DNA of 64,000 nucleotides. It comes from a virus. The stretch is from the IMG/VR virus record IMGVR_UViG_3300000176_000008, positions 5,609 to 69,608 of that record; one strand, given 5' to 3'. Under the pieces are notes generated by a model. That model saw nothing but the letters and a program-made list of their open reading frames with translations. It had not been told where the DNA came from and did not search any database. Of this stretch, positions 1-36,838 are shown piece after piece. How positions within the stretch are numbered: the stretch's first letter is position 1; each line of letters starts with the position of its first letter. A program made the position numbers and the translations under genes.

Positions 1-3000
1 TTATAACTGTGCCAGTAGTACCGGGAGTGACACTAATACCAGTACCGCCTACGATGTTAGTAATGGTACTAACAGCAAATCCATTTTGAAAAATAACTGT
101 GGCAGATACAGTATTAGCATATAGTGTCTGTACAATTTCAACATTAGTAGCAGTAACATTACTGGCACTAACATTGCCAGCACTAACTGTGCCTGTGGTT
201 GCAACATTACCTGCAGTAACGGTACCGGTTGAATTTACATTACCAGAATTAATAGTTCCTGCACTGACAGTACCAGTCGATACTAAATTACCAGTAGTAA
301 CTGTATTTGCACTGACAGTACCAGTTGATACTAAATTACCAGTAGTAACTGTATTTGCACTAACAGTACCAGTTGAATTAACATTGCCTGTATTAATATT
401 AGTTGATGTAACAGTGTTAGCACTGACAGTACCAGTAGTTGAAACATTGCCTGCAGTAACGGTGCCAGTTGAATTTACATTACCAGCAGTAACTGTACCG
501 GTAGAAGTAACATTACCAGCATTGACATTACCCGCAGTAACGGTGCCAGTTGAATTTACATTACCTGTGTTAACATTAGTAGATGTAAGTGTATTAGCAC
601 TGACTGTGCCAGAGGACGAAATATTTGTAGTATTAAGGTTGGTAGATGTAACAGTATTAGCACTAACAGTACCTGTCGAACTAACATTGCCGCCAACATT
701 TAAACAACCAGTAATACCAGTACCGCCGTGAACAACCACAGCACCTGTGCAAGGGCTTGAGCTACCTGCACCACCAACAACATTTAAATTATTAGAAGTG
801 TTTGGATTGGTATTAACAAACGGTGTTGAATAAAGCGTAAACGCCTGACTTTGGCTCTGAGGAACTTGGTCTGTAACTGTAATAACATAAGTTGCTGTGG
901 CTGCAGATACCGAAGCTGATCCACTAATTGCACCACTTGAAGTATTAAAGGTTAAGCCAGAAGGAATTGAGCTAGGATATATTGCATAAGTATAGCCAGG
1001 AACACCGCCAGCACCTACTACAGGAGTAGAACTAGCTGCTACATTAACATTGAATGTTACTGCAGGTACCTGTAGTACTGCTTGCAGTGCCGGTGGTGGA
1101 TCAGGATTAACAATTAAATTAAAATTAGCTGATACACTTTGTCCGTCCTGGTCAGCAACAGTAACTGTATAGGATGTTGTCGATAGTGTCTGCGCCGGTG
1201 TACCTGTAATCTGTCCAGTACCGTTGTTAAAAGTTAATCCAAAGTATTGAGAGAAGCTAGGACTAATAGTGTAACTTAATGTGCCATATCCGCCCTGACC
1301 TTGAACAGGAGTGAATGGTGTTATTGCAGAATATTGTACTTCAACAATAGATGGATAGTTGAGTTTGTAGGTCAATGCTACAGGCTTCACTATTAGATTA
1401 AAACTACCGCTGGTAGTTTGTGAAATACTATCAGTAACCGTTACCGTATATGGTGTGTTATTAGACAGAGCATTTGGTGTTCCTGAAAGTTGCCCGGTGT
1501 TGGCATTAAAGTTTAATCCACTGGGTAAAGGTGGGCTAATGCTGTAGCTAATAGGAGCAACACCGCCTAAAGATCCTACAGGAATTATTGCTGCAATTGC
1601 CTGCGTTATTGTTGTAACAATATTTGTAGCATTGGTTACACGAGTCAGTGGTGTAGGTGCCGGTATATAAACTCTAATAGAAGTACTAGATGTAGCACCG
1701 GTACCGTCATTAACAGTAATAGTATATGTTGTAGTGTTAAGGCTAGCAGTAGGAGTACCGCTGATTACACTAGTCACTGTATTAAATGTTAATCCTTGAT
1801 CTATTGAAGGACTAATACTGTAATTGTAAATTCCACTTCCACCGATGGCTGTTACAGGCGTAAATGGCGTTACCGCATAATATTCTGTAAATGAATAGAT
1901 GTAAGAACTAGATGTTGTAGCTGTAAGTGTTAATAACGGATTAGTAACTGCCAGTGTAAACTGTGTGCTACTATTTTGACTGATACTGTCTGAGACAATA
2001 ACAGTATAAGTAGCAGTTGAGCTGACCACACTAGGAGTACCTGTAATTCTACCGTTAGCACTGTTAAAGCTCAATCCTGTAGGCAGAGTAGGACTGACAA
2101 AGAAACTTAGGCTACCATAGCCACCATAGGCTCCTACCGGACTAAAACTAGCATTGGTTACTAGTTTTACCAGCGAAGTTGCGGTGGTTATAATGTATGT
2201 AGAAACAGGAGTAGGATTTAATACAGTTAAGTTGAATACCTGTGAACTGGTATTACTCAATGTATCAGTTATTGTGATTGTATAATTGGTTGCACTGGTA
2301 GAAGTAGTTGCTGTACCGTAAATTTGACCACTACTGGTAATAAAATTTAGCCCACTAGGCAGACTAGGCGTAATTGAGAATGTATAAACTCCGGTACCGC
2401 CCACTACCGTTACCGGAGCAAACTGCGTAACCGCAATACTTCGATATGCAGATATTGACGGAACAGCCAGTGTAGTTACCAGCGCCGGAGTAGCAACCTG
2501 TAGTCTAAATGATGCTGTACTAGATTGACTTAAAGAATCAGAAACAGTAACTGTGTAATTGGTTAGATTAGAATATGTAGAAGCTGACCCGCTAATAATT
2601 CCAGTACCGTTGCCGTACAACAATCCACTAGGTAGAGTTGGAGTAATTGCATAGCTTAGTGTTCCATAACCACCGACGGCAGTTACAGGGGCAAATGGTG
2701 TGAATACTATATTCTGTGATAGAGTTGTAACGCTGATTACAGTAGTTGCTGTAACTGCATTTGGATTGTTAACTGTTAATCTAAAACTTGATGTACTAGT
2801 CTGCGGTGTTTGATCAGTTACTGATACTACATATGTTGTAGCCGCACTAGAAGTAGAAGTAACACCTGCAACCTGTCCATTAGCAGTATTAAAAGTTAAT
2901 CCGGTAGGTAATCCGGGACTAACAGCCCAAGTAAATGTTCCAAACCCGCCTGTGGCAGTTACAGGAGTAAAAGGAGTAAATGTTACTAATCTAGTTAACG

Positions 3001-4429
3001 ATGTAGAAGGTACCGCAGTGGTCACTGTCAGCGGAACAGAACTTACGCTTAGACTAAATGATTTGCTGCTAGTTTGGGTAGCCTGGTCATTAACGGTAAC
3101 TGTATAAGTTGCTACAGAACTGGCTACTGTAGGAGTTCCTAAAATTGCACCAGTACTGGTACTGAACAACAACCCTGTAGGCAGTGCCGGGCTGATGGCA
3201 TAATTTAATCCAAGATATCCGCCACTGGCCGCTACAGGTGTAAAACTAACTGCAGTATTACGAGTTAGAGAATTAGTAGGGCTAACCAATGTTGTAGTTA
3301 ACAACGGTAGTGCGTTGACTACTAGGGTAAAGGACTTAGAGCTACTTTGGGGCGTAGTGGGGTTACTATCCGTAACAGTTACAGTATAACTGGTACTAGG
3401 AATAGAGGTACTAGGGGTTCCGCTGATTGCACCTGTAGTGGCACTGAATGATAAACCAACCGGTAAGCTAGGACTGATGGCATAGTTTAATGCGCCAATA
3501 CCGCCTGATGCTGTTACAGGAGTAAATGTTGTAATAGCAATACTCTGAATAGCAGTAAAACTAGGAACAACCAGTACCGTTGATACTAATACAGGATTAA
3601 CTGTTAAAGAAAAAGACTGACTGCTGTTTTGTCCTACAGTATCAGTGACTGTAACTGCAAAAGTAGTTGGGCTAATAATAGCGGTAGGATTACCACTGAT
3701 AGCCCCAGTGGATGTACTCATTGCTAGTCCAGTAGGTAGATTAGGACTGATAGTGAATTTTAATGCACCAGTACCGCCCGTAGCTGTTACAGGTGTAAAT
3801 GTAGTAGCAGTGGTATATTCTACTAATGTTTGACTAGGAATTGCTAGTGTTGTAGTAACTGGAACGCTACCTGCAGCCGAAACAGTTAAACTAAACGATG
3901 CATTACTAACCAGTCCGCTAGCATCTGTAAAAGAAACGACATAGGTTGTTACTGGTACAGCCACCGTTGGCGTACCTGTTACAGAAACATTAACTGAGTT
4001 ATAATACCTAGAAATACCGTCTGAGCCAACAACTGTAACAACGCTTGGAGTAGATGTTAGAGTCAATCCAGTGGGCAATGCTGGACTAACTGTAGTAGAT
4101 AATCCTACCAATGTGCCACTAGTGGTATAAGATGTAGCAACAGCGGCGCCGCCTGTAGCACCCACTGGCGTAAAATTAACTACTTGACCTGTAGAAACCT
4201 GTGTGCTAGGAACTAGGGTACTGGCAGTAATTGCAGGAATAACTTCAGTACCGCCCGCACCTGCAACTAGCGGACTAGCAGCAGTATACTTGGTCCAGGC
4301 ATTGGTCAGTGCACCTTTGGTTAATTGGAACGCAGCACCAGCGCTGGTTACATAAAAATCGCCGAGTTGGTATTGAGATAGTTTAGTACTAGGCGTCGTT
4401 GCTGGATAGGGTGAGAAATAAATTGCCAT
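1..4429 (-). CDS. Large Ig-repeat (He_PIG/cadherin-like) fibre/adhesin protein, 3' end runs off the window (>1470 aa)
   Basis: Absent from the ORF track because no stop lies inside the window. ATG at 4429 reads MAIYFSPYPATTPSTKLSQYQLGDFYV..., and the same frame is open at position 2 (...NIVGGTGISVTPGTTGTVI). About 12 repeats of ~92 aa (SPxLPxGLxFNTxTGxISGTP...YTVTVxD) are followed by GNVNSTGTVTA beta-repeats. Confidence 0.85.
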   Translation of the reverse strand, partial: MAIYFSPYPATTPSTKLSQYQLGDFYVTSAGAAFQLTKGALTNAWTKYTAASPLVAGAGGTEVIPAITASTLVPSTQVSTGQVVNFTPVGATGGAAVATSYTTSGTLVGLSTTVSPALPTGLTLTSTPSVVTVVGSDGISRYYNSVNVSVTGTPTVAVPVTTYVVSFTDASGLVSNASFSLTVSAAGSVPVTTTLAIPSQTLVEYTTATTFTPVTATGGTGALKFTISPNLPTGLAMSTSTGAISGNPTAIISPTTFAVTVTDTVGQNSSQSFSLTVNPVLVSTVLVVPSFTAIQSIAITTFTPVTASGGIGALNYAISPSLPVGLSFSATTGAISGTPSTSIPSTSYTVTVTDSNPTTPQSSSKSFTLVVNALPLLTTTLVSPTNSLTRNTAVSFTPVAASGGYLGLNYAISPALPTGLLFSTSTGAILGTPTVASSVATYTVTVNDQATQTSSKSFSLSVSSVPLTVTTAVPSTSLTRLVTFTPFTPVTATGGFGTFTWAVSPGLPTGLTFNTANGQVAGVTSTSSAATTYVVSVTDQTPQTSTSSFRLTVNNPNAVTATTVISVTTLSQNIVFTPFAPVTAVGGYGTLSYAITPTLPSGLLYGNGTGIISGSASTYSNLTNYTVTVSDSLSQSSTASFRLQVATPALVTTLAVPSISAYRSIAVTQFAPVTVVGGTGVYTFSITPSLPSGLNFITSSGQIYGTATTSTSATNYTITITDTLSNTSSQVFNLTVLNPTPVSTYIITTATSLVKLVTNASFSPVGAYGGYGSLSFFVSPTLPTGLSFNSANGRITGTPSVVSSTATYTVIVSDSISQNSSTQFTLAVTNPLLTLTATTSSSYIYSFTEYYAVTPFTPVTAIGGSGIYNYSISPSIDQGLTFNTVTSVISGTPTASLNTTTYTITVNDGTGATSSTSIRVYIPAPTPLTRVTNATNIVTTITQAIAAIIPVGSLGGVAPISYSISPPLPSGLNFNANTGQLSGTPNALSNNTPYTVTVTDSISQTTSGSFNLIVKPVALTYKLNYPSIVEVQYSAITPFTPVQGQGGYGTLSYTISPSFSQYFGLTFNNGTGQITGTPAQTLSTTSYTVTVADQDGQSVSANFNLIVNPDPPPALQAVLQVPAVTFNVNVAASSTPVVGAGGVPGYTYAIYPSSIPSGLTFNTSSGAISGSASVSAATATYVITVTDQVPQSQSQAFTLYSTPFVNTNPNTSNNLNVVGGAGSSSPCTGAVVVHGGTGITGCLNVGGNVSSTGTVSANTVTSTNLNTTNISSSGTVSANTLTSTNVNTGNVNSTGTVTAGNVNAGNVTSTGTVTAGNVNSTGTVTAGNVSTTGTVSANTVTSTNINTGNVNSTGTVSANTVTTGNLVSTGTVSANTVTTGNLVSTGTVSAGTINSGNVNSTGTVTAGNVATTGTVSAGNVSASNVTATNVEIVQTLYANTVSATVIFQNGFAVSTITNIVGGTGISVTPGTTGTVI
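120..700 (-). repeat. Short tandem coding repeats (11-16 aa, GNVNSTGTVTA/VSANTVTS), including a near-exact 48-nt duplication at 261-308/309-356
   Basis: gcactgacagtaccagt(c/t)gatactaaattaccagtagtaactgtattt occurs twice in tandem; related 33-48-nt units flank it. Confidence 0.85.
830..4200 (-). repeat. ~12 tandem Ig-like domain repeats, ~277-nt period
   Basis: The SP/TP-x-LP-x-G motif recurs near 4081, 3745, 3470, 3190, 2910, 2640, 2365, 2090, 1810, 1535, 1260 and 975. Confidence 0.8.
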
Positions 4430-4435
4430 GATGTA

Positions 4436-5098
4436 TTAGAATATAGGATTAAATTGGACGTTACCGCACCCTTGATTGATCATAATGTATAGAGCGCCAA
4501 CGGTATTATCATAATACATATCGCCTACTGCTATTTGTCCGCCGCAGGTTGTTGGTAGTACAAAACAACCTGTGCATATTCCAGCAGCACCTGCGGCTGC
4601 TATAATTGAACAATTCGTCCATAATACTCCTGCTCGTGTAGTTTGTATAGATCCATCACCGAATGTAATGCTACCGGAACTAGTAGTAATATTAAAACTA
4701 GGGGCTGATATAGCACCTTGTGTAGTTACTCCATCATAAAATGTTGCTGTACCGTGGAAGTTTGCTTCTTTGCCGACATTTAGTGCGCCGCCGATACCAA
4801 CTCCGCCGCAGACAACCAGTGCACCAGTAGTTGTACTGGTACTGGCTGTGGTATTGGTTATTTCGAATTTGTCCGGACTTTGGACTAGAGTTTGAGTAAC
4901 TGTAGTGAGTTCTACTACTAACTTGGTAGCATTAATGGTACCGCCAACATACAAATTTCCAGCAATACCTGCGCCACCTTGAACAACCAAGGCACCGGAT
5001 GATGTTGAGTATGAGTTATAATGACCTTCGACTGTGGCAGTCGTAGAGACCACAAGGCCATTCTTGACTACAAAGTCTTTATTATTGACGGTTGCCAT
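4436..5098 (-). CDS. Short fibre/adaptor protein (N-terminal KDFVVKNGL motif, GALVVxGGxGIxG repeats)
   Basis: 220-aa ORF with phage fibre-type beta repeats and a C-terminal GDMYYDNTVGALY motif. Confidence 0.8.
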   Translation of the reverse strand: MATVNNKDFVVKNGLVVSTTATVEGHYNSYSTSSGALVVQGGAGIAGNLYVGGTINATKLVVELTTVTQTLVQSPDKFEITNTTASTSTTTGALVVCGGVGIGGALNVGKEANFHGTATFYDGVTTQGAISAPSFNITTSSGSITFGDGSIQTTRAGVLWTNCSIIAAAGAAGICTGCFVLPTTCGGQIAVGDMYYDNTVGALYIMINQGCGNVQFNPIF

Positions 5099-5225: not shown

Positions 5226-8200
5226 TTAATAAGTTGGAATAGCTGACAAGATGCTTTGACGAACAACTTGAACTGTTAGGCTAGTTGCACCAGTTGGAGT
5301 AAATGTTAATTCAACAACACTACCACTAATATCAGCATCAAATTGTCCTAATTCGCCGTTGTTTGTAACAACACTGAATTGGTTCATGTAAACATTAGTA
5401 CCGTCTTGGATTAACAAGATTTCTTCAGTGTGGATGTTAGCTCCGTCGACTAATTGAATTAGGTATTTGGCACTGGCATAGTCTGTACTGAATGTGTCAA
5501 TAGTAACTTTGCTCGCTCCGCTGATACCGCTTTGTCCAATAGCAGCTTGTACGTTGTTGACGATAAAGATACCATTTGTACCAGTATGTCCTACGTTGTT
5601 AGTAGCATCACCTGCAACAACTACACCACCAATAACAATGTCTTTACCGGCACGTAGGCCGCCTTCGGTAACAATGCTAGCAGCACATGCTGTGGTATAG
5701 CCTTGGCCGATTACACTAGATGCAATGTGTCCAACAGCACTCATGAACTGTGCGCCATCAGTGCTTGTAATGTACAAATCGCCAGTTAGTGAAGCGCTTG
5801 TAGCTGTAACGTGTGCTAGTGTTGTACCACCAGTTACTGTTAAGTTGTTTAATGTAGAGTTGCCTGTTACATTTAAACTTGTAGCAGTTGTACCAGCTAG
5901 ATAAGCATCACCAGTTACTGTTACGGTGTTCAATGTAGAGTTGCCTGTTACATTTAAACTTGTAGCAGTTGTACCAGCTAGGTATGTATCACCAGTCACA
6001 TTGAATGTACTTGTAACTGTTGTTACAGCATTGAATATAGCAGAGTGAGTTACTGTTAAGTTAGTCAATGTAGCATTGGTCAATACCAATTGTGCTAAAT
6101 TAACTGGACCAGTTACTGTCAAGCTGGTAGCTGTGATAGCATTTGCAAATACTGTACCTGTAGATACAATGTCTTGGAATGTACCAGTACTGCCACTTAC
6201 GCTGTCAAGTCCGCTTAGGTTTTGTCCTTTTACAAACAATGTACCATCAACATAGACATTGCCGTTGAATATAGCACAGCCGCCAACTAACAAGTTCTTG
6301 CTAATACCAACACCACCGCTGACTGCAAGAGCATTACTAGATGTTGTACTTGTGCTAGTAGCACTGCATTGTACAATAACATTCTTAGCAATGTTAGCAC
6401 CGCCAGTTACATACAATGCACCAGTAGATGCACCGCAGGCTGCTGTTGCACAATTAACAATAACATTCTTGCCAACATATGCGCCACCAGTTACAACTAG
6501 TGCACCAGTTCCGCAAGCACTAGTCGAAGCTGCTGTGCAGTTTGTAACCTTGGCTTTTGGTGTTGTTAGTGTAGAACTAGCATATGTAAAACCAGTAGAG
6601 TCAGTTAGTTTACCGCATATACCAGCATAAACAACGCCGCCTGCTACACATTTTAGACTTGTAACATTGACACATGCTGCTGTAATGGTATTTCCAGAAA
6701 CACCTACACATGTACCTACAATGCCGTTAGTACTATCATAAGTTAATACTTTAGCGGGTGTTGTAATACTAGTAACTTTAACTTTATTACCAGTTACTGT
6801 TCCGCAAGCAGCAGATAAATTAGTTGCCGATAATGTAGCACCATTCCAAGTAAATGCCGAGCAATCTGTTAATGTACCACATACCCCGGTATAAACAACT
6901 TTTCCGCAACCGCCTAAACTTGTAACTTTTGCATTAAGGGTAGTGAAATTGGTGCTAACACAGATATTAGGAACATTTAATGTAGAGCCAAAAAATGTAA
7001 AGCTGCTATTACCAGCTAAAGAACCGCAACTACCGCAAGCGTATACAATCTGTGTATTAGCTAAAGTAGTAACATCAACATTAGCAGCTTTTAATGTACC
7101 GCAGCTAACTGTAACAGATGTATCGCTTACAATAGTACCGCAGGCATTAGAATATAATAAACCATTAGCACTGACTAAGCTGCTAGATTTGAAATGTCCT
7201 GCAGTAATGCAATTAACAGCGCTGATACAATTAGCACCACTAATTGTTCCGCCAGTCATTGTAATAGATCCGCCAATACCATTAACTTGTAACTGTGTGC
7301 CAACTGTTAGGTTTCCGGATCCATTATAACTTAATCCGGAATCGCTTTCTAATACACCACAAGCACCAGCATAAACTACTCCGCCGCATTTGTTAGTTAA
7401 TCCAGTAACTTTAACAGCAGGTGCACAAACATAAGCTGAACCGCCACTCAATGTAACATTGCCAGAAGTAAGATTAATACTACCGTTGTTTAATGTTAAT
7501 GCGCCTGTGTTATCAAAGATCGCTGTGTTGATACCGCTAGAACCGGTTGCTAGTGTAACACCAGCCGAATCTGCAGTTACCGCAGCCGCATTGTTGTAAT
7601 TCAACTGTGCAGATGCACCAGAATAAACTGTTGTAGCATTAGTTCCGCCGGAGAATACTACCGGTTTACATGCCACTGGACCATTACCGCAACCGTAGAC
7701 TTTAGCGTTGCCAACAGTTAATGTTACTGCAGTAGCACTGAATGCAAAGTTAGAACTGAATGTTGTCGAGCTTGTACCAGATTGGAATGGAATCTCGTTT
7801 TGATAACCCCAAGCAATGTTAGTTGCTGTGCCAGAGTAGCAGGCAAATTTACTTGCTGAACTTACTTTCCAAGTAGCTGTGCTATTAGCACTACACCAGG
7901 TTAGTAGTTGATTATTTGCTGTAGCAGCAGGAATAAATGTTGTTACACCACTAGCTGCTTGGATTGGAATTTGACCTAATGCACCGCCGGTTATGTTATC
8001 GGCTGAAGTAACTGTACCCCAAATATGACCACCAACTTGTAAGTCGCTGGCAATGTATGCGCCACCGGCAACTTGTAAAGCACCGCTTGAACTACCTGTA
8101 GTTACATTAGTAGTGTCGTGTGCGTTTACAGAACCTAGATCCAATGCAGCATATGAACCGTTGTTTACTAGGTCGGCATTTGGAATTGGTTCGCTAGAAC

Positions 8201-26894: not shown

Positions 26895-27077
26895 GTTATA
26901 AATTTCTCCTATTAGGGTAGCGGCAAGGCTGTATGGTATTTACTATACCGCGGAAATTTATATACGAAATAGGCCTAAAACGAGCCGTTTTGACCTTGAT
27001 GACGCAGAATTACTTCTGGTTTTTGAATTTTTCTGTCTAAAATATTTAGTTTTTAGACCGCACAGTTATCTTTGTAC

Positions 27078-27326
27078 TTATTGTGCTGCCGCTTCTGGCG
27101 GAGGAGCAGCGTACATTTTTCTCACTAACCCTAGTTCTTTACGATGTTCTTTGTCATGAGATTCGCTGGCTTTGCGTATATCATTGATCATTCTCAATGT
27201 TAAACGAGTCTTGCGAAGGTCTTTTTGCTTCAGAACATTGGTAGTATCATTCTGGCTGAGATACCTGCTGTCATCCTGAGGATCAGCATGTTCACGGTCA
27301 AAATAGATAAACTCTCTTAAAATCAT
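27078..27326 (-). CDS. Small head-module protein
   Basis: 82-aa ORF downstream of the portal gene, with an RKTRLTLxxINxxR motif. Confidence 0.7.
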   Translation of the reverse strand: MILREFIYFDREHADPQDDSRYLSQNDTTNVLKQKDLRKTRLTLRMINDIRKASESHDKEHRKELGLVRKMYAAPPPEAAAQ

Positions 27327-27334
27327 AGTAGTAT

Positions 27335-32689: not shown

Positions 32690-32908
32690 TTGCATCTTGA
32701 TCTAGAAGGCATTAACCAGCTGGTCAAAGATTACGAGTTAGATTCAAAAGCCATCAAAGACGAACTTTTTAGGATATGCTGGTATATGAGGGGAGGACTC
32801 TCATATTCTGAAAGTATGCTATTAGGTTTTGAAGACCGAGAAATCATCGGTCGCATTATTGAAAAGAATTTGGAAACCACGAAAGAAAGTGGTCTTCCTT
32901 TCTTTTAA
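32690..32908 (+). CDS. gp51-like/GT-like chaperone domain, probably expressed by -1 frameshift from the gp26-like gene
   Basis: WYMRGGLSYSESMLLxxEDREII motif. The only start is a TTG without a clear SD, and the -1 frame is open from the slippery site at 32672. Confidence 0.7.
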   Translation: MHLDLEGINQLVKDYELDSKAIKDELFRICWYMRGGLSYSESMLLGFEDREIIGRIIEKNLETTKESGLPFF

Positions 32909-33651
32909 AGATTCATTCCTAGAAACCGACTGTAACCTACATCCTCGTTATATCCTCTAACTATATTAGGATTGTCATCTTCTGGCTCAGGTGCAGGCTT
33001 GACTGGTGCAGTAGCCGGTTTAGTATTAGCGTTAAACGAATAATTAACTTTTGGAACAGCACCTTGAGTCTGCCCTCCACCGTAATTAGTAGCTGTTGGT
33101 TTTGCAGGTTGTGTTGTTTGGGCCGATTGTGCTTGGTCTGTATTTGTTGGTTTTGCAGGTTGTGTTGGTTGCGTAGCAGGTTCTGCTTGAGCTGCAGGTT
33201 CTGCTTGAGTTGTAGGTTTTGCTTGTTGAGTATCAGCAGATTGTGTTGGTTGCGTAGCAGGTTCTGCTTGAGCTGCAGGTTCTGCTTGAATTTTACTTAC
33301 AATATCTTTTTTAGCATCAGGATTTAATTTAGATACTAGTTGTAAAATTTGGTCAACTTCATTATCTCCACCTGTAGGAGCAGCCGCTGCTGCTATCGGT
33401 GCAGCAGTAGCAGGTCGACCTTGTCCTGTAGGAATAGGCGCTGCCCAACTAGGACCTTGACTTTGATTAGCATCAGGTTTTAATGCAGTTTGTCCTGCTT
33501 GGTATCCTTGCTTGGCACCATTCCATACATTTTTAAGTCCTTGAACTACTCCCCCAGCAACTGCACCAGGAACTCTGCCAAGGCCTTGCCCTAGTCCTTT
33601 AAGACTTAATTCGTCTAATTGATCTTCAGTTAATATTTCGTTGATTCTCAT
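32905..33651 (-). CDS. Low-complexity (P/Q/A/T-rich) protein, putative internal head protein
   Basis: MRINEILTEDQLDE start with LxE sites; contains internal repeats. Confidence 0.6.
   Translation of the reverse strand: MRINEILTEDQLDELSLKGLGQGLGRVPGAVAGGVVQGLKNVWNGAKQGYQAGQTALKPDANQSQGPSWAAPIPTGQGRPATAAPIAAAAAPTGGDNEVDQILQLVSKLNPDAKKDIVSKIQAEPAAQAEPATQPTQSADTQQAKPTTQAEPAAQAEPATQPTQPAKPTNTDQAQSAQTTQPAKPTATNYGGGQTQGAVPKVNYSFNANTKPATAPVKPAPEPEDDNPNIVRGYNEDVGYSRFLGMNL
33160..33289. repeat. Exact 49-nt direct repeat (33160-33208 and 33241-33289)
   Basis: ttgtgttggttgcgtagcaggttctgcttgagctgcaggttctgcttga occurs twice, encoding QAEPAAQAEPATQPTQ. Confidence 0.9.
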
Positions 33652-34886
33652 TATACAGTTCCTAATGCGGCTAATACTTTTTGCTGATCGGCTGGTGGTA
33701 ATTTTTTAATTCTAGCAACAATGTCATCAATATTTATATTTTGAGCAGCAGGAGTAGCAGAAGGTACAGGTATTTGCATATCTCCAAATACCTTGTTGAT
33801 AACAGTATCATCTACACCGGCTTGTCGCAGTATGTTGGCCACTGCATCACTATCTGTAGGACTTCCTGCTTTCTTCCAAGCAGATTGTAGTTTGTCTGCG
33901 GTGATTTTGGTGGTTAAGTTCTTGCCTACAGTAGCGGCCTTTTGTTTAATTGTATCCCAAACACCCTCATCAAGTTTACGCTGACGGGCAACAACTTTGC
34001 CAATTATCAAGGCAATTGCCGATTCTGACAAGTTAATTGATTCCTGTGTAGCCTGTTGTTTTGCTAGATCGTAAGCAGCTTGAACAGCAGGGCTAAGTTT
34101 ATTGCCGTTTTGTATTGACATATCGGCTAAGGCCATTTGTGTAGGATTTAATGGTTGTCCAGGGATAACCGGCATACCACCTATAGCAGTTCCGCTATAA
34201 TTACTAGCATATTGTCCGGGACCAGTTTGTCCCACTAATTCATTTTCGCCAGGACGAGTACCGTACTGATGATCCAAAGGTTGTGCCTGTTGCCCTTGTA
34301 GTGCTTTGCCGATTTGTCCAGCGGCATAAGCAGTGGCGCCTGTTTTAGCGCCTGCATAAGCAGCACTGCTAAACTTCTCACCTTGAAGTAGTTTGTCTAC
34401 CATTTTAAATAGGCCCAGTGCTGCTGCACCACCTAATCCAGCACCACTGATACCTGCGGCTGCAATCAACGCTGAATAAATTAAACTCTGTGCAATTGGA
34501 TGTGCTTTGGCAAAATCTCTGTACTTTTGCACATACTTCATTACGCCTTGATCACCACCTGTAGCTTGTTTTAACTTTTCAGCAGCTTGATCGTATTTGG
34601 CATCCAATCCTTTGATAGGACCAGAGTTTTGTATTTTAGTTTTTAGATCTTCCCACGCCCTATTAACTGTTGAAGCTATATCTTTACCTTGCCCAATCAT
34701 AGTTCTATTAGAACCCGAGGCTGTAGCACCTGCTTCTATTTGTTGAAATAGTTGATTTATTTGATCAGGAGTAAGAGCAGCTTCTTTGATTAAAATACCT
34801 GCGTGTTCCCATAATCTCACAGAACGAATAGATGGTTTGTCTAGTCCTTCATAGAGATAGTCGTTGTAAATGTGATTGAGCTTCAT
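33651..34886 (-). CDS. Putative internal/ejection protein with a hydrophobic Gly/Ala hairpin
   Basis: 411 aa with a LIYSALIAAAGISGAGLGGAAALGLF segment and several LxE sites; preceded by TATAAATA at 34907-34914. Confidence 0.6.
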   Translation of the reverse strand: MKLNHIYNDYLYEGLDKPSIRSVRLWEHAGILIKEAALTPDQINQLFQQIEAGATASGSNRTMIGQGKDIASTVNRAWEDLKTKIQNSGPIKGLDAKYDQAAEKLKQATGGDQGVMKYVQKYRDFAKAHPIAQSLIYSALIAAAGISGAGLGGAAALGLFKMVDKLLQGEKFSSAAYAGAKTGATAYAAGQIGKALQGQQAQPLDHQYGTRPGENELVGQTGPGQYASNYSGTAIGGMPVIPGQPLNPTQMALADMSIQNGNKLSPAVQAAYDLAKQQATQESINLSESAIALIIGKVVARQRKLDEGVWDTIKQKAATVGKNLTTKITADKLQSAWKKAGSPTDSDAVANILRQAGVDDTVINKVFGDMQIPVPSATPAAQNINIDDIVARIKKLPPADQQKVLAALGTV

Positions 34887-34913
34887 AGAATTAAGATTTA
34901 ATCATCTATTTAT

Positions 34914-35345
34914 AAACGAACTGCGTTCGTTTGATCTATCGCTCACGCTCAGATCAGTTGTTTCGTCGAAGACGTTTTTAATATTATCCAGATTGTTTGG
35001 TCACACTTCGCCCGCACAGGGCGAAGAACATTATCCGAGTTACCTCAGTCACACAGTGTTAGAGCATTACAGTGGCGGTTGACCGGTACCACGAGCTCCG
35101 TCTTCATCTCAACGGCAGCTTACATATACACACTATCGCATATGTAAACCCAGGGTTTTTCTCCCTTCTTTTTTGCCTTTTCTACTATCTTCTAACAATC
35201 AAACCGCGGCTATTTGCGATCTTGGTCCTGTAAAGGATACTGATTGAGAACTCTTAACGGCAAGAGATTTCCGTCCCTGTGATCCGAGATCCAGGTCTAG
35301 GGCGCACGATATTGGCTTGCGCTTGCTTTTGTTACCGTTTAAGGT
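34914..35345 (-). ncRNA. Candidate large structured ncRNA or structured cis element (~430 nt)
   Basis: No credible ORF in an otherwise gene-dense genome. At least 10 helices, a possible pseudoknot and GNRA loops were found by eye. Confidence 0.6.
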
Positions 35346-35347
35346 GC

Positions 35348-35377
35348 CTAAATTTTATTTCTAATGTGGGAGCCATG
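35348..35377 (-). pseudogene. Displaced original 3' end of the 36040..36465 gene (HGSHIRNKI*)
   Basis: cat ggc tcc cac att aga aat aaa att tag lies directly after the endonuclease stop and parallels the current end HQSHIKGKI*. Confidence 0.75.
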
Positions 35378-35971
35378 TCAATGTAACTTACCCGCAACCA
35401 TTCCTTCTGGAATAACAGACTTACGATAATTTCTAATACCGTCGTTACACCATTTTAAGGAGGACATTTTCTCGGACATCCGTTCTCGGTATCCTGGAAT
35501 ATTCCAATTAGCTGCTAGTTGGTTACATCTTTTTTTATAATTTTCTGGAATTGCTAGATATTCTTTTGTTTTTTTACTTAGATGTTGTGCCTGTTTTTGT
35601 TGTGCTTCTTTATATTTCTTCTTAGATTCTTCTGTATGTTTTTTGCCTTTATTTGTCCTTGAAAGTTTTTGTCTGCTTTCAATGGTCCACGGCATAGCGC
35701 CACCGTCTCCCATCTCTGGGACAATATTAGCAAATTCTTTGGATTCTACAATATTCCATAAATTTGAATAGTAAATTCCGGCTTCTTTAATTTCAGATGG
35801 ATTAGTAGTTTCAAGCAAAATTTCAGTAGTTACATCATATCCGTGTTTTTTGATATGTTGCCTCCAAACGGTGCCCGAACCTTGATATAAATGCGGATCA
35901 ATAGAAATAGTCTTGCCAAGATATTTTAACCCAGTTTTGTTGTGGGTTTTTACATAGAGGTAAATAGGCAT
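35378..35971 (-). CDS. GIY-YIG homing endonuclease with a NUMOD3-like DNA-binding motif
   Basis: IYLYVKTHNKTGLKYLGKT...YQGSG...W...EIL, NxxPExGDGG, KGKKHTEESKKK and WCNDG...GMVAG. Probable start is the ATG at 35971 with an AAGGA SD. Confidence 0.85.
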   Translation of the reverse strand: MPIYLYVKTHNKTGLKYLGKTISIDPHLYQGSGTVWRQHIKKHGYDVTTEILLETTNPSEIKEAGIYYSNLWNIVESKEFANIVPEMGDGGAMPWTIESRQKLSRTNKGKKHTEESKKKYKEAQQKQAQHLSKKTKEYLAIPENYKKRCNQLAANWNIPGYRERMSEKMSSLKWCNDGIRNYRKSVIPEGMVAGKLH

Positions 35972-36069
35972 GCTGATAGTTCCTTCATAACTGTTAGAGT
36001 CAGTGGATGTTGACGCATCGCGACTGGCACTAATATTTATTAAATCTTGCCTTTTATATGTGATTGGTG
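35378..36069 (-). mobile_element. Homing-endonuclease insertion cassette (replacement C-terminus, late promoter, hairpin leader, GIY-YIG ORF)
   Basis: Bounded by two versions of the last 10 codons of the host gene; TAAATA at 36034-36039. Confidence 0.7.
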
Positions 36070-36465
36070 TATCCTGCAACTTATCTGTCCGTTATAATAA
36101 TCATCTGATTCTAATACTTTTCTTTCAAACTGGGTTCTTGCTTCTACATAAGTGCATTCACTTTTACTTTTGCAATAGAATAATATTTCTCTTGTAAAAT
36201 TATTCTGGCCAAGCAATTCGATATCTTTTTTAAGTTCGTCTGAGCTAGACCAATATGTTTGCCAGTCGCTTGATATTTTGCTTCTAATTTTCTTCTTCTT
36301 TTTAGTGCCATTCTTTAGTGTAACAGTTTTATATGTTGTTTTAGAGAACTTTGCTAGTTTTTTGCCTATATATTTTCTACCATTGGTCAAGTTCGTGATA
36401 AGATATACAAATCCTACACAATCTTCAGGAAGAGTCTCCACTGCTTGATTTTGGTATGTCCACAT
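36040..36465 (-). CDS. Small GIY-YIG-superfamily nuclease (catalytic domain only)
   Basis: GFVYLITNLTNGRKYIGKK...WQTYWSSS...FTREIL...YVE...YYNG. Confidence 0.8.
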   Translation of the reverse strand: MWTYQNQAVETLPEDCVGFVYLITNLTNGRKYIGKKLAKFSKTTYKTVTLKNGTKKKKKIRSKISSDWQTYWSSSDELKKDIELLGQNNFTREILFYCKSKSECTYVEARTQFERKVLESDDYYNGQISCRIHQSHIKGKI

Positions 36466-36838
36466 TCTTCTTTTTATACTTCTTTGGTGGCTCTTTGGCC
36501 TCTACTTCTCGTTTCTTCTTATCAAATGCCTCGGCCATATCTTTGCTTCGGTTTCTTAGAACGATACACAATTTCTGTAGTCTAACCACAGTATGCCTAA
36601 ACTCGGTACCTGATCTAAGGGCACTAGATTTAAGGAACCTACGATGATAGTTATTAACTTCTACAAGTGCAGCCACAAAATCTGAGTATGCTTGCGTATA
36701 CTCGGCTCGTGTCCGTACGATTTCCGAGTCATCTAGCAAAATACATTGGGCACCGTGATACCGTTTGTAAGTTAGCTTAGACACTCGACTACCGCACTTT
36801 TCGCAGGTTACATGGTCTTTTGTAGATTCAAGCCACAT
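36425..36838 (-). CDS. Basic hypothetical protein with an N-terminal CxxC...H...C zinc module
   Basis: 137 aa; CEKCGSRVSKLTYKRYHGAQC followed by a basic helical region; overlaps both neighbouring genes. Confidence 0.65.
   Translation of the reverse strand: MWLESTKDHVTCEKCGSRVSKLTYKRYHGAQCILLDDSEIVRTRAEYTQAYSDFVAALVEVNNYHRRFLKSSALRSGTEFRHTVVRLQKLCIVLRNRSKDMAEAFDKKKREVEAKEPPKKYKKKNVDIPKSSSGDSS

Follow-up and report, generated by a model that had tools for sequence, protein, structure and literature searches.

The stretch analysed here, hereafter the window, comprises 64,000 nucleotides (positions 5,609 to 69,608) of IMG/VR record IMGVR_UViG_3300000176_000008, an uncultured lake phage of 69,608 bases with a CheckV completeness of 19%. 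Related complete records measure 345–355 kb, which identifies the source as a giant T4-like phage. At positions 34914–35345, on the minus strand, lies an element that comparative sequence analysis confirmed as a conserved, structured non-coding RNA (ncRNA) gene of about 430 nt. The minus-strand neighbours follow in the order Mre11-like gene, Rad50-like gene, 137-aa open reading frame (ORF), 141-aa GIY-YIG gene, 197-aa GIY-YIG gene and the gap 34887–35377 containing the RNA. Beyond the gap, a 411-aa ORF and a 248-aa low-complexity ORF follow on the same strand, and a baseplate-hub gene lies on the opposite strand. The Mre11-like ORF (337 aa) was labelled from gene order and our own reading of its sequence; the Rad50-like ORF (594 aa) matches the Pfam families AAA_23 and SMC_N. 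The gap measures 491 nt and is the longest stretch of the window without an ORF of at least 100 aa. The first-pass annotation, made from the sequence alone, had described it in this way, and its limits for the element hold as well.

Single-sequence folding was unconvincing. The minimum free energy was −130.8 kcal/mol, with a z-score of −1.70 for the minus strand (plus strand, −1.92), not above chance, and the proof of an RNA is therefore comparative. A blastn search of the gap against loci fetched by a short pattern aligned the whole 470 nt in dozens of viral contigs at 67–87.5% identity. After a second pattern search, the element was recovered with nhmmer in 166 of 270 fetched viral loci; 140 copies were full length, 127 of them distinct, and clustering at 93% identity left 108 representatives. 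RNAalifold applied to 39 sequences predicted 87 pairs, 46 with changes on both sides. Mutual information over the 108 representatives yielded a model with three pseudoknots, its 97 pairs forming 21 helices. Of this model, 95.5% was paired in alignment A1, compared with 83.1% in shuffles and 35–43% when partners were slid, and 66 of the 97 pairs had changed on both sides (36.3 in shuffles, 15–28 with slid partners). None of 500 shuffles matched any of the observed measures. Most sequences were gathered with DNA patterns drawn from the RNA, so that part of the invariance seen in short motifs reflects the sampling; the helices are unaffected.

Individual G–U pairs were kept in alignment A1 (UG in 36 and GU in 37 of 39 sequences). 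Such pairs would read C–A on the plus strand, and the RNA strand is thus the minus strand, the one proposed at first reading; the Rfam match described below lies on it too. Together with the strong covariation among related phages, these alignments show selection at the RNA level, on the minus strand and over the whole length. Each of three complete genomes (3/3) carries one copy of the RNA.

Comparison also revised the structure drawn from the single sequence (Table 1). Nine helices had been proposed there, of which six gained covariation support (gcgca/tgcgc, cctg-gatc/gatc-cagg, caatca/tgattg, the 12-bp stem, gtgg/ccac and cttcgccc/gggcgaag) and the rest did not. The pseudoknot placed at 35251–35275 survives in its ctct/agag half; its gacgg/ccgtt half gives way to PK-A, formed by the loop GCCGU. 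A second ccgtt/gacgg helix is likewise unsupported, its strand 35109–35113 belonging to P9, and so are the cgg-tcaa-ccg and gag-GTAA-ctc hairpins, the latter confined to the window's own lineage.

Table 1. Features of the RNA locus in window coordinates.
Feature	Position	Strand	Basis or remark
Whole RNA gene: 5′ domain, A-rich linker, 3′ core, terminal hairpins	34914–35345	−	comparative; ~430 nt
5′ domain, helices P1–P6 (RF01718)	35193–35327	−	cmscan and covariation
PK-A, 5′ strand ACGGU	35334–35338	−	pairs with P3 hairpin loop 35257–35261; outside the Rfam model
A-rich linker	35167–35195	−	between 5′ domain and P7
P8, 12-bp hairpin after P7	35118–35149	−	11/12 stem pairs change on both sides
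PK-B	P8 loop 35130–35136 with 35053–35059	−	7/7 pairs change on both sides
Core junction	35062–35113	−	mutual information and covariation; kept in type B and marine relatives
P9	35109–35113/35078–35082	−	crosses P10 (35095–35098/35062–35065) and P11 (35089–35092/35072–35075)
Box R1, ACUC+GGAUAAU	35030–35040	−	direct repeat
H1, 8-bp hairpin between boxes	35006–35026	−	covariation
Box R2, AUCU+GGAUAAU	34983–34993	−	7-mer identical to that of R1
Terminal hairpins H2, H3 (inner GNRA hairpin), H4	34964–34974, 34933–34955, 34915–34931	−	covariation
141-aa SegE-type GIY-YIG gene	36040–36465	−	PF19835, E 1.8e-33; usual upstream neighbour
Inserted 197-aa GIY-YIG homing-endonuclease gene	35378–35971	−	phrog_314, E 3.7e-16
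Remnant of the 141-aa gene's ancestral last 9 codons and stop	35348–35377	−	relatives without the insert end here
Sigma-70-like promoter TTGACA-18-TAAAAT	35352–35381	−	11/12 consensus matches; predicted start ~35345
TATAAATA	34907–34914	−	20 nt before the ATG of the 411-aa ORF; outside the RNA

The 5′ domain is a member of the Rfam family Polynucleobacter-1 (RF01718). With cmscan and Rfam 15, it aligned to the full model (positions 1–141 of 141) at 111.8 bits against a gathering threshold of 37 (E = 2e-23), and the helices of the family show compensatory change, e.g., CG 17/AU 16/UA 5 and CG 25/UA 14. No other Rfam family was matched within 34400–36600 at E up to 5, which disposes of a known large ncRNA, ribozyme, tRNA, tmRNA, RNase P or group I/II intron, and ARAGORN placed no tRNA or tmRNA gene in the window. 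The first-pass annotation had recognised no hallmarks of a known RNA and proposed a novel large phage ncRNA, naming a confident Rfam match as the outcome that would speak against it. It had overlooked just such a match, which cmscan returned for the first third only. A large phage ncRNA is indeed present; its 5′ 135 nt are not novel, and the ~290-nt core is absent from Rfam.

In the table of Weinberg et al. (2010; PMC2864571), Polynucleobacter-1 appears as a likely RNA, marked 'y' for cis-regulation and assigned to Burkholderiales and to fresh water and estuary. The motif was named in no open-access paper that we found beyond this 2010 survey, whose supplementary motif description may add gene context. 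Phage contigs carrying both the nuclease gene and the RNA (L351–L377) are binned in metagenome-assembled genomes (MAGs) of Polynucleobacter, Saccharibacteria, Pacearchaeota, Bifidobacterium and Haliscomenobacter. These labels look like mis-binning, and mis-binning may be the reason for the motif's Polynucleobacter name.

A sample collected from the protein side revealed the modular architecture of the RNA. Of 541 contigs related to the 141-aa family, the best 80 were used (64–79% identity). Several of these loci gave an nhmmer match to the 3′ half of the RNA only, and the RF01718 match was missing in 13 of 18 scanned loci. Ten aligned loci, referred to as type B, have a different, mutually conserved 5′ half of ~240 nt followed by the same 3′ core. 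A covariance model of the core (146 positions; its E-values are rough) found diverged copies in marine MAG contigs at 23.6–36.1 bits, likewise without an RF01718 match. Since the core is kept in lineages with unrelated 5′ halves, it is the universal part and the RF01718 domain an accessory one. The alignments show a modular RNA, in which a replaceable 5′ domain precedes a universal 3′ core with crossing helices. What is new, as far as these sequences reach, is the universal core, undescribed in Rfam, and what was known is the accessory first third. As the Rfam family covers the swappable domain and not the core, annotation based on it misses the sister lineages.

The tertiary contacts of the RNA are supported by covariation as well. 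PK-A, which joins the extreme 5′ end to the P3 loop, shows pair types AU 15/UA 11/GC 7 and GC 33/AU 6 in 39 sequences and also carries mutual information in the 108. Marine locus L365, read by eye, keeps the logic of P8 and PK-B with other sequences. The core junction holds an invariant GGUA..G....ACCGCC, an invariance to which the search pattern itself contributed. H1 has another sequence in type B and marine forms and is the same hairpin there.

The 3′ part of the core carries two short boxes on either side of H1. They read A-CUC-N7 (R1) and A-UCU-N7 (R2), and N7 was identical between the two boxes in 108 of 108 representatives. The word itself is variable: ten variants occur among the 108 (GGAUAAU in 35, AGAUAAU in 34, GGAUGAU in 9, GGAUGAA in 8, and others). 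By parsimony on a tree made without the box columns, it changes at least 40 times, a count that the quick tree and phage recombination may inflate, with a floor of nine concerted steps for ten variants. Independent supported pairs were concordant in 13/13 cases at position 1 (p = 0.0002) and in 8/8 at position 5. Mutual information between R1 and R2 reached 0.99 bit; between −480 and +250 nt, the 47-nt inter-box stretch included, no other column exceeded 0.13.

The same identity extends beyond the main lineage. Type B RNAs have R1 = R2, and marine relatives have R1 = R2 with unrelated words: AGCACAUAG in L365, ACCACAGAG in L367, GCCACAG in L364, and ACAUGAA in both boxes of L318, L370 and L372. 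The boxes are 47–61 nt apart overall (52–61 nt in marine relatives), with H1 between them. Their flanks differ consistently, with CUC versus UCU before and G versus A after, and the identical tract is the variable 7–9 bases of each box. In these alignments, R1 and R2 covary by identity in parallel register and not by complementarity. Covariation of this kind, in which two unpaired words of any sequence must match each other, is not looked for by standard tools, and it points to a reader.

The reader could be a nuclease encoded next to the RNA. The first-pass annotation suggested a ribonucleoprotein (RNP) with the 141-aa GIY-YIG protein, which the RNA would guide or inhibit; the RNA could also be processed by it, with the boxes as two recognition or cleavage sites. 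The protein was modelled by AF2 with a pLDDT of 88.5, and the model has a Lys-rich beta-hairpin insert at residues 39–65 that might favour such a complex. Its best Foldseek match was the I-TevI catalytic domain (probability 0.98, E 0.08, TM 0.46/0.65), and nothing among PDB sequences matched at E ≤ 0.001. Residues Y21, Y32, R92 and E108 are invariant in the family and N125 is present in at least 90% of members. PADLOC returned only 'homing endonuclease' for the neighbouring genes. The protein is as conserved as Rad50 (70–78%), unlike a selfish endonuclease.

Genomic linkage between gene and RNA is tight when viewed from the RNA. Among the 166 RNA loci, the gene lies upstream on the same strand in 148, there is no room for it in 15 and it is missing in 3 (148/151 with room); for 138 of these 148, the stop is no more than 25 nt from where it is expected. 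The neighbourhood persists down to 52–58% protein identity, even in inverted form. Viewed from the protein, the linkage is looser: the RNA is present in 46 of the 80 loci and missing from 29, with 5 others ending too early, so that 29 of 75 loci with room are without RNA, and RF01718 was found in none of 20 tested. Partial records of RNA-less phages gave RF01718 in 0/5 and the core model in 0/2. The family occurs in 476 GenBank phage records, all below 60% identity; the best match, Methylophilales phage Melnitz, has the gene after nrdAB and no RNA. Spacing between gene and RNA is interrupted in three lineages, by 693, 778 (L183, L224) and 1812 nt (L086), and at some loci by an ORF of 329–356 aa. 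In marine loci L364, L365 and L367, the RNA (23.6–36.1 bits) lies on the strand opposite the nuclease gene, just upstream of it. A hypervariable guide-like segment, expected of a guide RNA, is absent: both ends are conserved helices and hairpins, and the only freely varying words are the internal 7–9-nt boxes, which a protein is unlikely to follow when they are arbitrary. The guide or RNP proposal thus gained no positive support, and we consider a complex with this protein improbable, even given the linkage.

At the 29 RNA-less loci (L276, L288, L342 and 26 others), the stop of the nuclease gene overlaps the start of a membrane-like ORF of 290–400 aa. This ORF has weak tetraspanin-like/membrane matches, and a DUF4337 protein (PF14235, E 6.9e-30) is often next to it.

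In the window, gene and RNA are separated by the 197-aa gene, found only there and in two near-identical contigs and absent from the 99%-identical L053 and L123–L125. The sequence 35377–35348 reads HGSHIRNKI*, the ancestral end of the 141-aa protein, and the inserted cassette (region 35348–36079, minus strand) brings a recoded end, HQSHIKGKI*. In relatives without the insert the 141-aa ORF ends at 35348, which bears out the displaced original stop noticed at first reading and the original position of the RNA directly behind the gene. L123 (2440–2560), 99% identical and without the cassette, still has the recoded C-terminus along with part of the remnant, a pattern that looks like a secondary loss of the cassette through deletion at an ATTAG microhomology. 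The 778-nt insertion of L183 and L224 and the 1812-nt insertion of L086 occupy this site in two further lineages and are different from the cassette.

The insertion has also shaped a putative transcription start. The −35 hexamer TTGACA of the promoter-like site overlaps the stop of the inserted gene, the site having formed at the junction of insert and remnant, with its predicted start just before PK-A. Transcription of the window RNA probably begins there; at other loci, the RNA probably arises by transcription that continues out of the nuclease gene or starts at a promoter of its own. L365 has TTGACT-17-TATATA upstream of the RNA (by eye; the motif scan gave no score, the last base being A), and its last hairpin, the counterpart of the window's terminal one, scored as terminator-like, which the window hairpins did not. 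Downstream of the RNA stands TATAAATA, which we take to match the T4 late-promoter consensus; loci in which a same-strand gene comes next conserve it, and those with a convergent gene lack it.

These flanks bear on whether the RNA is a cis element of a flanking mRNA, either a stabiliser or regulator in the 3′ untranslated region (UTR) of the nuclease gene or the leader of a downstream late gene. Its position directly behind a stop codon in most loci would suit such a role, as would the cis-regulatory 'y' in the table of Weinberg et al. (2010; PMC2864571). Downstream genes, in contrast, differ or are convergent among loci and TATAAATA separates the RNA from the next ATG; this comparison shows that the RNA is not a leader of the downstream gene. 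The RNA also stays intact when it is 0.7–1.8 kb away from the nuclease gene or on the other strand, and its size and knots are atypical of a UTR element. Of all the explanations considered, a cis element appears the least probable.

The reading that we favour, at a probability of about one half, is that the element forms an autonomous gene of giant T4-like phages and that its product, a highly structured ncRNA, acts in trans, with a core that offers two identical words to one reader. Its autonomy is indicated by the marine RNAs encoded opposite the nuclease gene, L365 having promoter-like and terminator-like sites of its own. The core would act as a scaffold that holds two unpaired boxes flanking a hairpin, with a word of 7–9 nt that would be at liberty to differ from lineage to lineage, provided that both boxes share it. 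In the simplest case, one nucleic-acid strand would base-pair with both boxes. That strand could be present as two copies of a short trans partner, or it could be a complement copied from one box and then paired anew with the other, making the RNA a realignment or template-switch device. Identification of the box reader would make the function of the RNA directly testable.

Searches for such a partner were made at several levels. Within the window, the complement ATTATCCRRRT has 10 matches against 9.45 expected, and two of these are the boxes themselves. In four phage records, the 11-mer complement occurs at the two self sites and at 1–4 others. Mutual information from −480 to +250 nt disclosed no partner in cis. 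No reading frame through the boxes is conserved, as the preceding open frames range from 2 to 121 codons and box spacing modulo 3 is distributed 28/40/39. RVT_1 reverse transcriptase was found in none of 5 records, 3 of them complete.

Several candidates were rejected in the course of these searches. ATTATCCAAAT occurs once in each of the four records and is coding in the three that read clearly (DYPNG/YYPNG), two of them plainly homologous. The sole homologous site that tracks a G/A change of the box is a synonymous CAA/CAG codon change in a coding region. A U-rich strand after P4, the only candidate of an alignment-free scan, is invariant and forms wobble pairs with every variant; it also overlaps P4, and type B RNAs lack it. 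Freshwater box words have an 'NNN + UAA/UGA' appearance that the marine words do not share.

The following observations weigh against the trans-acting reading. The 11-mer complement stands at control level in the four phage records, two of which are ~100% complete. No homologous 7-mer site covaries with the boxes among 3 complete genomes, where 7-mers occur at chance frequency, and same-strand complements of the 9-mers are absent within 3 kb. With no RVT_1 reverse transcriptase in 3 complete genomes, no copying enzyme is at hand. The invariance of motifs is in part an artefact of search patterns derived from the RNA, and the counts of box changes are possibly inflated by the quick tree and recombination, down to a minimum of 9 steps. 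The tight linkage of RNA and gene in the RNA-first sample could mean a shared function. Finally, the promoter and terminator assignments are no more than matches to a consensus, and the window itself lacks a terminator-like site.

The lack of a nucleic-acid partner in these searches would be expected if the boxes were read by a protein dimer, or if they formed an intramolecular, pseudo-symmetric motif, their identity being maintained through shape selection or local gene conversion across the hairpin. The box units M1 and M2 resemble a tandem duplication (GUGAC, spacer, AYYY, box, hairpin), which would fit this origin. Words that differ wholly between lineages would be hard for a protein to follow, however, and the sharp, conserved boundaries of identity (CUC versus UCU before, G versus A after) argue against passive conversion. 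To our knowledge, parallel-register identity is not produced by known RNA–RNA contacts. We regard this explanation as unlikely, though less so than an RNP with the nuclease.

Re-pairing of a complementary strand calls for repeats that are identical but arbitrary, and such repeats would equally suit an element acting in replication or recombination on its own DNA locus. Such an element could be an origin-type primer RNA, or the repeats and hairpin could serve in slipped or realigned DNA or RNA:DNA pairing. Its single copy per genome and its position beside Mre11/Rad50-type genes and the structure-poor GIY-YIG nuclease are consistent with this. On the other hand, the cumulative GC-skew curves of 3/3 complete genomes run monotonically past the locus without a turn (a proxy, and weak evidence either way). 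Compensatory change, G–U pairs and pseudoknots over 430 nt exceed the needs of an R-loop primer, and no variant without the inter-box segment was seen among the 166 loci. A role confined to the own locus seems about as doubtful as the protein-dimer explanation.

A more specific proposal treats the twin boxes as a sequence-addressed device. A complementary strand, which could be a short nucleic acid acting in trans or a nascent copy, would pair with box 1 and re-pair with box 2 across the hairpin, giving an RNA-bridged realignment in replication, recombination or repair together with the adjacent Mre11/Rad50-type genes and the GIY-YIG nuclease. We hold this to be a long shot, on a par with the RNP. 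If true, the virus would perform a novel type of reaction, RNA-templated or RNA-bridged, while lacking a reverse transcriptase.

Other parts of the window yielded additional observations. An apparent gap of 3.7 kb (732–4435), which would have exceeded that of the RNA, is part of a giant minus-strand ORF running past the window start; alternative genetic codes and tandem repeats were tried for it and gave nothing. This repeat-rich ORF (within 1–5098) encodes at least 1,240 aa with Thr/Ser/Val-rich, fibre-like repeats of ~95 aa, begins just past the stop of a 220-aa ORF (4436–5098) and was absent from the ORF list because it is open-ended. The 411-aa and 248-aa genes (32905–34886, minus strand; the latter Pro/Ala/Gln/Thr-rich) vary strongly in length and presence among relatives and had no match in Pfam or PHROG. 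GenBank phages gave no match to the RNA (blastn) or to the 411-aa protein (tblastn). A second Rfam match, freshwater-2 (RF02980; 21723–21803, minus strand; 61 bits against a gathering threshold of 49.9), sits at one edge of 275 nt that are free of long ORFs. Positions 26895–27334 form 440 nt without an ORF of at least 100 aa, with a minus-strand fold of z −2.74, and may hold a small ORF.

The family is abundant in giant T4-like lake phages and diverged in the sea, with at least 166 loci for the RNA and at least 541 contigs for the linked gene. Compared with the catalogued Polynucleobacter-1, the window segment is a full-length, high-scoring member, and fresh water is the habitat common to both. 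The RNA described here differs in continuing ~290 nt into the core, in having an extra pseudoknot strand 5′ of the model, and in that its sister lineages join the core to another 5′ domain. A cis-regulatory 5′ leader, as the survey table's entry for the motif suggests, does not fit the variable or convergent downstream genes, the intervening TATAAATA and the lineages with the RNA on the opposite strand.

RNAs of such size and intricacy are rare, and earlier ones proved to be ribozymes, guide RNAs or self-assembling particles. GOLLD, ROOL, HEARO, OLE and raiA, large ornate RNAs of bacteria and phages, are several hundred nucleotides long, rich in helices and pseudoknots, and of unknown or recently clarified function. 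The present RNA, phage-borne too, resembles them in size, helices and pseudoknots, but it matches none of their Rfam models and has no adjacent tRNAs; we know of no matched twin boxes in any of them. The omega RNAs or HEARO of IscB and TnpB are likewise structured RNAs whose genes adjoin that of a small nuclease. Here, by comparison, the nuclease has the GIY-YIG fold, linkage is not obligatory, the RNA is sometimes divergent and there is no variable guide at an end. Type III toxin–antitoxin RNA (ToxI) is a poor parallel as well, since only the boxes are identical, the spacers and hairpins differ, and the neighbours match only 'homing endonuclease' in PADLOC.

The closest parallels to the boxes are devices in which matched repeats re-pair: the gene 60 bypass of T4, retroviral R repeats, telomerase template repeats and template jumping on the DRT2 ncRNA. 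Matched words around a hairpin are the mark of a strand or tRNA detaching from one site and pairing anew at a second. Differences lie in a spacing not divisible by 3, in the lack of a reading frame through the boxes and in a phage that encodes no reverse transcriptase; for the gene 60 bypass in particular, matched sites ~50 nt apart with a hairpin are present, but not the ORF into a take-off site and after a landing site. What the RNA has in common with all of these devices is two identical words of free choice, 47–61 nt apart, with a hairpin between them.

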